This document shows, in pieces, positions 3,001-9,000 of a stretch of 64,000 nucleotides of DNA. The stretch lies in assembly GCF_041886205.1 (NCBI RefSeq), contig NZ_CP169029.1; one strand, written 5' to 3'. The DNA comes from Escherichia coli (lineage in GTDB: Bacteria > Pseudomonadota > Gammaproteobacteria > Enterobacterales > Enterobacteriaceae). Position numbers: made by a program. Position 1 is the first letter of the stretch; each line of letters opens with the position of its first letter.

Positions 3001-6000
3001 TGCGGTCGCCAGTGAAGTGGCGCATCAACTTCATGCCGCGTTTCTTGATGGCGATTTCCTCCATCCACGGCGCAATATCGAAAAAATGGCGTCTGGTGAA
3101 CCGCTGAATGACGACGACCGCAAACCGTGGTTGCAGGCGCTGAACGACGCCGCGTTTGCTATGCAGCGTACCAATAAAGTGTCGCTGATCGTCTGTTCTG
3201 CACTGAAAAAACACTATCGCGACTTGCTGCGTGAAGGTAATCCGAATCTCTCGTTCATCTACCTGAAAGGCGATTTTGATGTGATTGAAAGCCGCCTGAA
3301 AGCGCGCAAAGGCCATTTCTTTAAAACCCAAATGTTGGTGACGCAGTTTGAAACGCTGCAGGAGCCGGGTGCGGACGAAACCGATGTACTGGTGGTGGAT
3401 ATCGATCAACCGCTGGAAGGTGTTGTGGCAAGCACCATTGAGGTTATTAAAAAAGGCAAATAAGTAGTGACTACATTAACGCTTGTTTTAACAGCAGTAG
3501 GGTCTGTTTTACTGCTGCTGTTTTTAGTCATGAAGGCGCGTATGCACGCTTTCCTGGCTTTAATGGTGGTGTCTATGGGGGCTGGCCTTTTTTCCGGTAT
3601 GCCGCTCGATAAAATCGCAGCGACGATGGAAAAAGGGATGGGAGGCACCCTCGGCTTCCTGGCGGTGGTTGTCGCCCTGGGAGCTATGTTTGGCAAGATC
3701 TTACATGAAACCGGCGCAGTCGATCAGATTGCCGTCAAAATGCTCAAATCCTTCGGCCACAGCCGCGCGCATTATGCCATTGGCCTTGCGGGGCTGGTTT
3801 GTGCGCTACCGCTGTTCTTTGAAGTGGCGATTGTTCTGCTGATTAGCGTTGCTTTCTCAATGGCGCGCCACACCGGTACGAACCTGGTGAAGCTGGTAAT
3901 CCCATTATTCGCAGGCGTGGCGGCAGCGGCGGCGTTCCTGGTGCCAGGGCCAGCGCCAATGCTGCTGGCATCGCAGATGAACGCCGATTTTGGCTGGATG
4001 ATCCTGATTGGCCTGTGTGCGGCAATTCCGGGAATGATTATTGCCGGGCCGCTGTGGGGTAACTTCATCAGCCGTTACGTTGAGCTGCATATTCCTGACG
4101 ACATCAGCGAACCGCATCTCGGCGAAGGCAAAATGCCATCTTTCGGATTCAGCCTGTCGCTGATCCTGCTGCCGCTGGTGCTGGTAGGGCTGAAAACCAT
4201 TGCCGCGCGTTTTGTGCCGGAAGGATCAACTGCTTACGAATGGTTTGAGTTTATCGGTCATCCGTTTACCGCGATTCTGGTTGCTTGTCTGGTGGCGATT
4301 TACGGTCTGGCAATGCGTCAGGGCATGCCAAAAGACAAAGTGATGGAGATTTGCGGTCACGCGCTGCAACCGGCGGGGATCATTCTGCTGGTGATTGGTG
4401 CGGGCGGCGTGTTCAAACAGGTGCTGGTTGACTCTGGCGTAGGTCCGGCACTGGGCGAAGCGTTAACCGGCATGGGCCTGCCGATTGCTATCACCTGCTT
4501 CGTGCTGGCCGCTGCAGTGCGCATCATTCAGGGGTCTGCCACCGTAGCCTGTTTAACGGCGGTGGGACTGGTGATGCCAGTCATTGAACAACTGAACTAC
4601 TCTGGTGCGCAAATGGCGGCACTGTCGATTTGTATCGCTGGTGGTTCGATTGTTGTCAGCCACGTTAACGACGCTGGTTTCTGGTTGTTCGGTAAATTTA
4701 CCGGCGCGACCGAAGCCGAAACGCTGAAAACCTGGACCATGATGGAAACCATCCTCGGCACTGTCGGTGCCATCGTTGGGATGATTGCGTTCCAGCTGTT
4801 GAGTTAATTACTGCGACAAATTACTGCGAGCTTGCTCGCAGTAATTCATTTCTCTTATCTCCTCTCTTCATCTTTTTGATCCCTCTCGCAAATTTACCTG
4901 CTAATAATCCGTTCTAATCACTGCCTAAAGATCGCAGGAGATAAAGATGGAAAAGCACGGAGCTGAATTGCTTTTACAGCGGATGTTAGGAAATACCACC
5001 GCTACTTTCAGGAAAGGGCAATGGGAAGCCATAGACGCGGTGGTGAACCAACGGCGAAAACTGCTGGTTGTCCAACGCACTGGCAGGGGGAAAAGTGCCG
5101 TGTACTTCATCGCCAGTAAAATCTTCCGCGATCGCGGTGCTGGCCCGACAATTATCATCTCTCCTTTGCTTGCCCTGATGCGTAACCAGGTTGCCGCCGC
5201 TGAACGGTTAGGTATTACGGCTGAAACGTTGAATTCTACAAACAGGGAAGAATGGCAGCGTATTAGCGATAAGTTGCTGCAAGGTGAGGTCGATTGCTTG
5301 CTGGTTTCCCCGGAACGTTTGGCAAACCAGGACTTTATCGAAACGGTTTTATATCCTATAGCCGATCGTATTGGCTTGCTTGTGGTCGACGAGGCGCACT
5401 GCATCTCTGATTGGGGCCACGATTTTCGCCCGGATTACCGACGTATATTAGATATTTTGCGCCAACTGCCTGCGAATATCCCAGTTCTGGGTACAACCGC
5501 GACAGCGAATAACCGTGTCGTTGAGGATATCCGTCAGCAATTGGGTGACATTGTGATTCAGCGTGGAACGCTGGCTCGCGAAAGTTTGGCGCTTGATGCC
5601 TTAGTCTTAGGTGAACAGTCATCCCGTCTGGCATGGTTAGCAACGGTTATCCCTCAGTTTTCCAAATCGGGAATTGTTTATACCCTGACTACTCGCGATG
5701 CCGAACTTGTCGCCGAGTGGTTAAGGACAAATGGTATCAGTGCATTTGCTTACTACAGCGGCGTGACTTGTGAAGGCGCGGAAGATTCTAATACTGCCAG
5801 GGAATATCTGGAGCAGGCGCTGCTGGCAAATAAAATCAAAGTGCTGGTCGCGACGACGGCATTAGGTATGGGGTTTGATAAACCTGATTTAGGTTTCGTC
5901 ATTCATTATCAAATGCCGGGGTCTATTGTCGGTTACTACCAACAGGTAGGGCGTGCCGGGCGTGCTATAGATTCCGCTGTTGGCATATTGCTTTGTGGTG

Positions 6001-9000
6001 GTGAAGACCGCGCTATTCATAAATTCTTCCGTGAAAGCGCCTTTCCTGCGGAGGCGCAAATTCATGAAATACTCAACGTACTTAGCGAGAATGACGGTCT
6101 TACCCTACGAGGCATTGAACAACGGACGAATCTCCGTTATGGGCAAATAGAAAAAGCACTGAAATTATTGGTAGCTGAAAATCCATCGCCTGTGGTGTAT
6201 ACCGAGAAATTATGGCGCAGAACTATCGTCAGTTTCTCTCCTGACCATGAACGAATTAACCATTTGATGAATCAGAGAAAAAATGAGCTGGCAGATGTTG
6301 AAAGCTATATCACGACCAAGGAGTGCAAAATGCAATTTCTGCGCCGCGCACTCGATGAGCCAAGTGCCGAACGTTGTGGTAAATGTAGCAGTTGTCTTCA
6401 GCATCCGTTGCTGTCGCCCGATATTGATAGCGGCTTACTCCATGCGGCAAATTTATTTATTAAACACGCTGACCTGCCATTAAATCTCAATAAACAGGTA
6501 GCATCTGGGGCTTTTACGCAATACGGATTTAAAGGGAACTTGCCTGCGGGTTTACAAGGATCTACGGGGCGAGTCCTTTCTCGTTGGGGAGATTCCGGGT
6601 GGGGAAAGCAGGTAGCACAGGAGAAAAAAACGGGGCGATTCAGTGATGAGCTGGTGGAGGCATGTGCGGAAATGGTTCGCCAACGCTGGAATCCGCATCC
6701 TGAACCAACCTGGGTATGCTGCGTTCCTTCATTAAGGCACCTCGACCTGGTTCCTGATTTTGCCCGGCGACTGGCGGCGAAACTTGGCTTACCTTTTATT
6801 GATGCCATTGAAAAAGTCGTGGACAATCCACCGCAGAATATGCAGCAAAACCGTTTTCACCAGTGTCAAAATCTCGACGGGGCGTTTGTGATTACCCCTC
6901 CTTTGATGCCAGGTCCGGCGTTGCTGGTTGACGATATCGTGGATTCTGCATGGACGCTGACAGTTCTGACAGCACTGTTACGCCAGGCAGGTTGCCCGAC
7001 GGTTTATCCTCTTGCCCTTGCTTCTACCTCGGTAAAAAATTGATGAATCTTTCAGCCAATGCACAAGCGACTCTCCTGCTAACCAGCGATTTTTCTCGCG
7101 CGGCGGCGAGTGAGCATAAACCTCTTAGTAATAGTGAATGGGGGAAGTTTGCATTATGGCTGAAGCACCAACGTATCAGTCCCGCCGAGCTTCTGGTGCC
7201 GCAACCGCAAGAGAAACTTACAGGCTGGAGCGATCCGCGTATTTCTCAGGAGCGTATTCTTGGCTTGCTGGCGCGCGGTCATAGTCTGGCGTTGGCGGTA
7301 GATAAGTGGCAACGCGCCGGTTTATGGATCATAACCCGAGGAGATGCTGATTATCCCGTTCGCTTGAAAAACCGATTGCGAACGGATGCACCTCCCGTTT
7401 TATTTGGCTGCGGGAATAAAGCATTACTGCAAGCGGAAGGTATGGCGATTGTTGGCTCGCGAGATGCTCCGACTGACGATTTGCGCTATACCCAACAACT
7501 GGCCGCGAAACTGGCCCAACAGGGGATTTGCGTTATCTCTGGTGGTGCGCGAGGTATTGATGAATGTGCAATGGCGTCGGCACTGGAGGCCGGGGGAACT
7601 GCCGTTGGCGTATTAGCTGATAGCTTGTTAAAAACGAGTACGTTAGTGAAATGGCGTGAAGGGCTTATAGCAGGCAACCTGGTGTTGATTTCGCCGTTTT
7701 ACCCAGAGGTGCGTTTCACCGTCGGCAATGCGATGGCGCGAAATAAATATATTTATTGCCTTGCTGAAAGCGCAATGGTTGTACGTGCGGGAATGACCGG
7801 TGGAACGATAACCGGGGCGATAGAGGCATTAAAACATCAGTGGCTGCCTGTGCAGGTTAAACCAAATCAGGATATGCAATCAGCCAATTCACGATTAGTA
7901 GAAAATGGGGCGTCATGGAGTGCTGAACAGGCTGAGAATGTGCCGATCAGACTGTCAGACGTTCCTGGGCTGATGTATGACAGAGCACTCCGTAACGCTC
8001 AACCAGAACTGTTTTCGCTGTATGAAGATGACGCAAATTACGCAGTAATGCCCGCGCATACGCCTGTCGATTTTTATCAACTCTTTGTGGCGGAACTGGC
8101 GATCTTTGCAAAGGAATCGATAAGTATTGAAAGGCTGTCGTCTTGTACTGGTTTAACCATCGAACAAATTAGTGTGTGGCTGAACCGCGCAGAAGAAGAG
8201 GGAAGGGTTATCCGATTGGGCGAAGGTCATTATCAGTTCAGGTAATAAAACAGGTGCCGCGTCTGGTTGTGTGCAGCACCTGTTTGAACCTTACCCCTTC
8301 ATCCACATTCGAATGCCGTCGAGGAACATCTGGGTTGCCATCATCACCAGAATCAATCCCATCAGGCGTTCAAGTGCGTTCACCCCTTTCTCGCCCAGCA
8401 GACGTAAAAATAGCGAAGACTGTAGCAGGATGACAAAGGTGCCGCCCCAGGCCAGCAGCAGAGCAATCACCAGATGTCCCATCTGATTTGGGTACTGATG
8501 AGACAACAACATCAGCGTGGCGAGAATAGTCGGCCCGGCGACTAACGGAATTGCCAACGGCACGATAAATGGCTCTTCACCTGCCGGAAGCCCGCTGCTA
8601 TTTCCTGAAGCGCTGGGGAAAATCATCTTAATGGCGATCAGAAACAGTATGATGCCGCCAGAAATGGAGACGGTTTCTGCTCGCAGGCTAAGAAATGCCA
8701 GAATTTTCTCACCCGCAAACAGGAACACCAGCATCACCAGGAGAGCAATAAGCAACTCTCGCACCATGATTGCCCGCCGTCTTTTCGGTTCAGTATGTTT
8801 CAGTACGGACATGAAAATAGGTAGGTTTCCGAGCGGATCCATAATCAGGATCAATAAAACTGCTGCAGAAATGATTTCATTCATAACTCAAATTCCCTGA
8901 TAATTGCCGCGGACTTTCTGCGTGCTAACAAAGCAGGATAAGTCGCATTACTGATGGCTTCGCTATCATTGATTAATTTCACTTGCGACTTTGGCTGCTT

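Follow-up and report, generated by a model that had tools for sequence, protein, structure and literature searches.

The window analysed here is a stretch of 64,000 nucleotides from the Escherichia coli chromosome (RefSeq assembly GCF_041886205.1, contig NZ_CP169029.1), and the element under study is a two-gene operon, rqlH-rqlI, located in the gene order yhhX-yhhW-gntRKU ... yhgN-asd-glgBX. The stop codons of gntU (position 4807) and yhgN (8291) are separated by 3,483 bp, the spacer at this place in K-12 being 56 bp, and comparison with K-12 gave 4808-8290 as the segment absent from that strain. Its G+C content, 0.44-0.53, is unremarkable. Two intact open reading frames (ORFs) on the + strand are contained in it: rqlH, also called psyrT (4947-7043), encodes a 698-residue RecQ-like helicase with a phosphoribosyltransferase (PRTase) domain at its C-terminus, the toxin; rqlI, also called psyrA (7043-8245), encodes a 400-residue DprA-like antitoxin. 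The junction reads TGATG, the rqlI ATG and the rqlH TGA having one base in common, which confirms the two adjoining genes, the second starting on the stop codon of the first, described in an earlier interpretation of the same DNA (the sequence-only reading). The arrangement, rqlH followed by rqlI on the same strand and overlapping, matches that of PsyrTA with the toxin upstream; the order toxin before antitoxin was kept in nine of the nine homologous loci examined, and it is also the order of the published survey of rqlH-rqlI (PMC4670107).

The segment is almost certainly the rqlH-rqlI operon of the E. coli chromosome, known in defence catalogues as PsyrTA (Sberro 2013; Millman 2022; PADLOC, DefenseFinder) and formed by a helicase-PRTase toxin and its DprA-like antidote. 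Both proteins matched the corresponding PADLOC profiles over their full length: RqlH matched PsyrT (PDLC03928) with E = 0 and 1057 bits, residues 3-697 lying on profile positions 5-687 of 689, and RqlI matched PsyrA (PDLC03927) with 2e-199 and 661 bits, residues 1-400 lying on positions 1-397 of 398. The operon is already known, being a standard entry in defence-system catalogues and having been characterised in 2015 in a study dedicated to RqlH and RqlI in F11, an extraintestinal pathogenic E. coli (Russell & Mulvey 2015, PLoS Pathog, PMC4670107); the Millman preprint treats PsyrTA and RqlHI as one. The constructs of that study were K49A, D148A, DIVD663EVME/D663A, a PRTase deletion of residues 509-690 and RqlI 1-400, and the numbering of the window proteins coincides exactly with the published mutant positions (K49, D148 and DIVD663). 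The full-length PADLOC matches, the identical numbering and the 400-residue RqlI therefore identify the orthologous locus on which RqlHI was defined, and the membership of the RqlHI/PsyrTA family proposed in the sequence-only reading is strengthened to orthology. Gene order, gene sizes and the position of the PRTase (509-690) are those of F11; the difference is in the allele, which in the window carries E23K, W47R, T178I and K631N and is rare within E. coli. Alleles of sequence type 131 (ST131) and other B2-type strains are about 96% identical to the window at the DNA level.

The RecQ catalytic core of RqlH comprises residues 1 to about 490 (4947-6416, + strand; Foldseek and Pfam), with two RecA-like lobes, a Zn-binding cysteine cluster and a winged-helix region. 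All of the motifs quoted in the earlier interpretation were located: TGRGKS at residue 45, DEAH at 148, TATA at 184, QQVGRAGR at 332 and CGKCSSC at 477 in the first protein, and GSRDAP and GGARGID in the second. K49 and DEAH148 are intact, and the Walker A motif, TGRGKS, contains W47R. Pfam identified DEAD, Helicase_C, a weak RecQ_Zn_bind and a marginal Pribosyltran (independent E-value 0.0077). The NCBIfam recQ_fam model was matched with 254 bits (cut-off 219.8), but the recQ equivalogs were not reached (TIGR01389, 297 bits with the cut-off at 640; PRK11057, 227 with the cut-off at 1015). Canonical RecQ identity was rejected on these cut-offs and on the C-terminus, which is a PRTase and not HRDC. 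The predicted full-length model is of moderate confidence (predicted local distance difference test score of 72.8) and its top Foldseek match was 1oyw, the RecQ catalytic core, with 488 aligned columns and E 1.9e-26. Judging by this superposition, RqlH has the two motor lobes together with the Zn-binding and winged-helix regions, that is, more than the helicase motor alone.

The C-terminal tail is a predicted type I PRTase-fold domain at residues 545-698 (6579-7040, + strand). It presents an acidic loop for binding phosphoribosyl pyrophosphate (PRPP), LLVDDIVDSAWT, which contains D663, and a flexible loop at 627-644 which bears K631N. By sequence the PRTase nature of the tail was the weakest point. 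A phmmer search of the PDB with the tail alone gave E-values of at least 0.34, and BLASTP against GntX/YhgH, encoded in the same window, gave 30 bits, a pairwise E of 9e-6 and 26% identity over 76 residues. The sequence-only reading had described an alignment of about 140 residues with GntX; the kinship with ComF is real at the level of the fold, but a sequence alignment of that length was not reproduced. A precomputed PF00156 match is present in most RqlH homologues, the matches to a profile of the tail were almost exclusively PRTases, every one aligned on the PRPP loop, and Helicobacter pylori ComF was the second-best fold match, with the longest alignment among the top-ranked matches. The question is settled by this family-level and structural evidence.

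The core of RqlI is the DprA/Smf Rossmann (SLOG) domain, as had been claimed, at residues 89-292 (7307-7918, + strand; Pfam DNA_processg_A 1e-50, SLOG cluster 4 5e-11). A PDB search with RqlI returned DprA and ShosA. The NCBIfam dprA equivalogs were not reached (TIGR00732, 102 bits with the cut-off at 191; PRK10736, 79 with the cut-off at 495), and canonical DprA/Smf identity was rejected. Two ShosA models were matched over no more than the DprA core, with 93.5 and 31.6 bits, well under the 661 bits of PsyrA. After a variable linker, the alignment contains a conserved block of about 60 C-terminal residues (8060-8242, + strand), possibly a helix-turn-helix (HTH); residues 340-400 gave weak, non-significant HTH-type matches only, in Pfam on nine orthologues and in a PDB profile search. 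In F11 a truncated RqlI (1-320) still rescues, the C-terminal region being dispensable for antitoxin activity (PMC4670107). RefSeq/PGAP starts the DprA-like gene at an upstream ATG, 6950, which gives 431 residues and an overlap of 94 nt with rqlH, 31 codons upstream of the start used here. Three points favour the start at 7043: residues 1-400 cover positions 1-397 of the 398 in the PsyrA profile, the orthologues begin with MNL and the 2015 paper uses 400 residues; the 431-residue form was judged unlikely on the same grounds.

Among the known systems, ShosTA shares with RqlHI a PRTase toxin that needs PRPP binding, a DprA-like antitoxin (ShosA, 93 bits), and the effects of DNA damage and filamentation. 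The ShosTA toxin is, however, a PRTase with a pyrophosphatase and no helicase, an architecture that RqlH does not have, and membership of ShosTA was ruled out by toxin architecture and fold distance. The second comparison is with competence proteins: ComF/ComFC, to which E. coli GntX/YhgH belongs, and DprA. The tail of RqlH shares with them the ComF-like PRTase fold, and RqlI the DprA Rossmann domain. A competence-type pair, where the helicase-ComF fusion and the DprA paralogue process incoming single-stranded DNA (ssDNA) like ComFA/ComFC and DprA, is very improbable. The idea is discussed in PMC4670107 and agrees with the rank of H. pylori ComF among the fold matches, the weak match to ComF-family GntX/YhgH of the same window, the RefSeq name 'ComF family protein' of a truncated tail and the strong DprA domain of RqlI. 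On the other side, the similarity to GntX is marginal, RqlI lies below the dprA cut-off, the helicase is RecQ-type and not ComFA-type, and E. coli already has canonical DprA and YhgH. The pair behaves as toxin and antidote in F11, its homologues are located in restriction-modification (R-M) operons and not in competence loci, the window copy has no competence context, and no transformation phenotype has been reported.

In F11 rqlH is co-transcribed with rqlI, and RqlH without RqlI induces SOS, makes cells filament, raises the mutation rate and arrests growth (PMC4670107). This toxicity requires the PRTase, specifically D663 in the PRPP-binding loop, although the PRTase alone is insufficient. 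The helicase-dead forms K49A and D148A are more harmful and D663A rescues. The sequence-only reading listed the helicase's role as not known, which no longer wholly holds: loss of helicase activity makes RqlH more toxic by way of the PRTase. RqlI co-immunoprecipitates with RqlH; it needs its N-terminus and the DprA region, not the C-terminal HTH (PMC4670107). In ShosTA toxicity requires PRPP binding, and the antitoxin, a DprA-like protein, binds both ssDNA and RecA. The mechanism proposed for the window operon is as follows. RqlH is a RecQ-type DNA helicase of 3'-5' polarity to which a ComF/PurF-like PRTase domain is fused, and RqlI, translated by coupling from the same mRNA, binds RqlH. The helicase may deliver or gate a PRPP-dependent activity on or near DNA, which RqlI and the ATP-driven turnover of the helicase would hold off. 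Loss or titration of RqlI, by phage ssDNA or by shut-off of host expression on the analogy of ShosTA, might then produce a genotoxic response of the abortive-infection type. No newer mechanistic papers on PsyrTA were found in the literature searched.

A different explanation is that RqlHI of Enterobacteriaceae is a domesticated genome-maintenance module acting on the DNA of its own cell (repair, recombination, or ssDNA handling when oxygen is low or in the gut), toxicity being the result of unbalanced expression; this is considered unlikely. It agrees with the impaired gut persistence and microaerobic growth that follow loss of rqlI (PMC4670107), but the phenotypes of the rqlI deletion vanish when rqlH is deleted too, and therefore no positive function has been shown for the pair. 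It also agrees with the presence of RqlH without RqlI in most Gram-positive bacteria. The Mycobacterium smegmatis RqlH has the same two-domain build, is an active helicase, and the K-to-A and D-to-A mutations that make E. coli RqlH helicase-dead were taken from it; it differs in being solo, without RqlI, and in vitro its helicase activity does not need the PRTase. It is not known to be toxic.

Of 5426 complete E. coli genomes, 1650 (about 30%) contain the 3.48-kb segment, always chromosomal, nearly always in single copy and 95-100% identical, and 3774 have the empty K-12-type gntU-yhgN site, leaving 70% of E. coli without the operon. The sum, 5424, is every genome having the site, and therefore no other cargo occurs between gntU and yhgN; a variable hotspot was rejected on this count. 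Homologues 68-73% identical were identified at the same site (gntR-gntK-gntU, then the pair, then yhgN/asd/glgB) in Citrobacter freundii, in a Silvania-like genome and in two metagenomic enterobacterial contigs, and the locus is therefore old beside gntU. Neither flanking direct or inverted repeats nor mobility genes were found at the operon. A recent insertion by a mobile element was rejected on the absence of repeats and mobility genes and on the same site in other genera. Absence from K-12 is more likely, and more simply, a loss, or an allelic replacement through the flanks, than a recent insertion in the present strain, and the insertion beside the gnt locus assumed in the sequence-only reading probably has the wrong polarity. 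A site shared by several enterobacterial genera, free of alternative cargo, repeats and mobility genes, is what a genome-maintenance function would lead one to expect; that the operon is dispensable to 70% of E. coli speaks against such a function, as do the close homologues embedded in R-M and defence islands.

These homologues, about 65% identical and found in Proteus, Pseudomonas, Halomonas and a Teredinibacter-like genome, are all located between hsdS and hsdR, in the order hsdM-hsdS-rqlH-rqlI-hsdR (comparison stretches L003/L004 6001-9488, L005 6001-9488, L011 6001-9365 and L012 6001-9485). The R-M operons lie downstream of Cro-like regulator genes and, except in Halomonas, of AlpA-like (HTH_17) genes too; in Halomonas a TraI_2 gene and GmrSD adjoin the operon. 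An acidic linker insertion makes RqlI longer in these genomes (418-463 residues). The context is that of a typical mobile defence island. It also resembles that of PrrC-type modules in type I R-M operons: in the EcoprrI locus prrC, too, lies between hsdS and hsdR. The window copy differs in not being linked to R-M genes.

Among ordinary alleles of E. coli, constraint is much stronger on the toxin gene than on the antitoxin gene. In two allele comparisons the synonymous to nonsynonymous codon differences were 36:6 and 25:3 in rqlH, and 11:9 and 18:8 in rqlI, where about half of the differences are nonsynonymous. The strong purifying selection on rqlH is a further point for a role in genome maintenance, and the repeated inactivation of the gene is a further point against it. 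In the O157-type strain 10671 and in O55:H7 CB9615, rqlH is frameshifted and its ORF ends after 202 residues, rqlI being intact with 400 (L013 1640-3764 and L019 140-2235). This state, toxin dead and antitoxin kept, occurs in a lineage for which an enrichment of 'PsyrTA' has been reported. The rqlH of isolate NRZ94505 is interrupted by an ISEcp1-blaCTX-M-15 unit together with IS26 and a Tn3 remnant (L014 4552-6586), and the leftover PRTase tail is called 'ComF family protein' by PGAP. Shigella sonnei has an insertion sequence in rqlH (PMC4670107). Several lineages have thus disabled the toxin while rqlI stays intact.

The window allele belongs to a small sublineage. W47, T178 and K631 are invariant in 29 aligned homologues and in six other full-length E. 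coli alleles (ST131 included), and W47 is retained even in the truncated O55:H7/O157-type alleles. Among the approximately 1650 genomes, exact 63-mer matches were obtained in 6 for the W47R region and in 10 for the K631N region. Strains MB53 and ET201 contain K23, I178 and N631 but W47, and are one nucleotide from the window rqlH; in PT62 two more invariant positions have changed (P162A and R580H). All the later rqlH changes in the sublineage (W47R; P162A and R580H in PT62) are nonsynonymous and at invariant positions, against a synonymous excess elsewhere, a pattern that points to a relaxation of constraint on the toxin in this group without proving it. The pair of the source strain may accordingly be read as a decaying remnant, the rqlH ORF intact, the toxin functionally disabled and the pair idle, a possible but doubtful explanation. 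In its favour are the rarity of the allele and the three substitutions at invariant positions, to which E23K is added. Against it, both ORFs are full length without stop codons, and the changes since the sublineage ancestor are only three, too few for statistics. Among superfamily 2 helicases, moreover, Walker A is variable at the position flanked by its two glycines.

Together, these observations allow a tentative history which, as a whole, we regard as unlikely. The gntU-linked RqlHI of Enterobacteriaceae would be a vertically inherited, domesticated descendant of an R-M-borne defence module, perhaps no longer anti-phage, and its toxin would be dismantled in an order set by epistasis, here K631N (with T178I and E23K) first and W47R second. 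K631N before W47R is also the order that agrees with the published epistasis, in which a helicase-dead RqlH is tolerated only together with a disabled PRTase.

The toxin-antidote operon with a role in phage defence has to be weighed against five points, all of which tell against it. First, in Table S2 of Millman the entry SG127, 'PsyrTA, Escherichia coli STEC 1299', of 3,485 bp, has an 'x' for 'observed defense'. This fragment starts with ATTACTGCGACAAATTACTGCGAGC..., which is window position 4807, and is therefore exactly the present intergenic segment. Second, in an independent study of E. coli NILS69 the PsyrTA copy gave no protection in the native host or in K-12 and caused a growth defect only. 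Third, the neighbourhood is housekeeping and not defence-like: the neighbours are gntRKU, yhgN, asd and glgB, the site is either empty or occupied by rqlHI, it is kept across enterobacterial genera and there are no mobility genes, so that the locus is not a mobile defence island. Fourth, with its rare substitutions at invariant positions and non-conservative changes in Walker A and the PRTase loop, the window RqlH may be attenuated or impaired. Fifth, no PsyrT/RqlH structure was found in the PDB, where the sequence matches cover the helicase core only.

The verified defender of the family is the PsyrTA of Bacillus sp. FJAT-29814, scored 'v' in the same table, and according to the preprint transformation with the psyrA deletion was not possible; the E. 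coli fragment of equal extent was negative in the same screen. No positive evidence for phage defence by E. coli RqlHI was found in the literature searched. The anti-phage claim of the sequence-only reading thus stands for the Bacillus homologue and fails for the SG127 and NILS69 copies from E. coli. The defence claim for the family resting on Bacillus, and the E. coli copies being negative, a defence role of the E. coli locus is therefore hypothetical. The two negative copies are also counted in favour of genome maintenance.

The remaining features of the segment are regulatory. A hairpin with perfect 13-bp arms followed by a T-rich tract (4819-4846, + strand), found both as an inverted repeat and as a terminator-like site, is likely the gntU terminator and marks the left edge of the segment absent from K-12. 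A hairpin with 13-nt arms, 92% complementary (8248-8285), found as an inverted repeat between the convergent rqlI and yhgN, is likely a bidirectional terminator at the right edge. A Shine-Dalgarno sequence, AGGAG (4936-4940, + strand), read directly from the DNA, precedes the rqlH ATG by 6 nt. A consensus scan of the + strand identified no sigma-70 promoter upstream of rqlH, the 100 nt from the hairpin to the ATG being without a strong consensus.

Other segments of the window also differ from K-12. A segment of about 0.8 kb between envZ and pck (52077-52749, - strand), absent from K-12, comprises a small toxin-antitoxin-like pair: a 105-residue ORF with Pfam RelE (9.5e-6) and a 98-residue NadS-family HTH protein (75 bits, cut-off 60). 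A second, of about 2.7 kb between glgP and glpD (19937-22935), is also absent from K-12, which keeps only a yzgL remnant. It contains a 505-residue membrane protein in which a PstS-family domain scored 122 bits, short of the cut-off, a 258-residue ORF and a 199-residue membrane ORF, the last two without NCBIfam or PADLOC matches. Smaller differences are an indel at 38686 near malQ/gntT, where K-12 is longer by about 65 bp, and another at 56598-56666 between yhgE and hslO, where the window is longer by about 69 bp.

As to annotation, RefSeq names rqlH 'RecQ family helicase' and rqlI 'DprA', and probably starts the antitoxin 31 codons too far upstream. PADLOC and DefenseFinder label the locus as anti-phage in about 30% of E. 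coli, and the two published E. coli tests that were found are both negative; several major lineages, O55:H7 and O157-type among them, carry a frameshifted toxin. For the family, the natural alleles with W47R and K631N could serve to probe the helicase-tethered PRTase.

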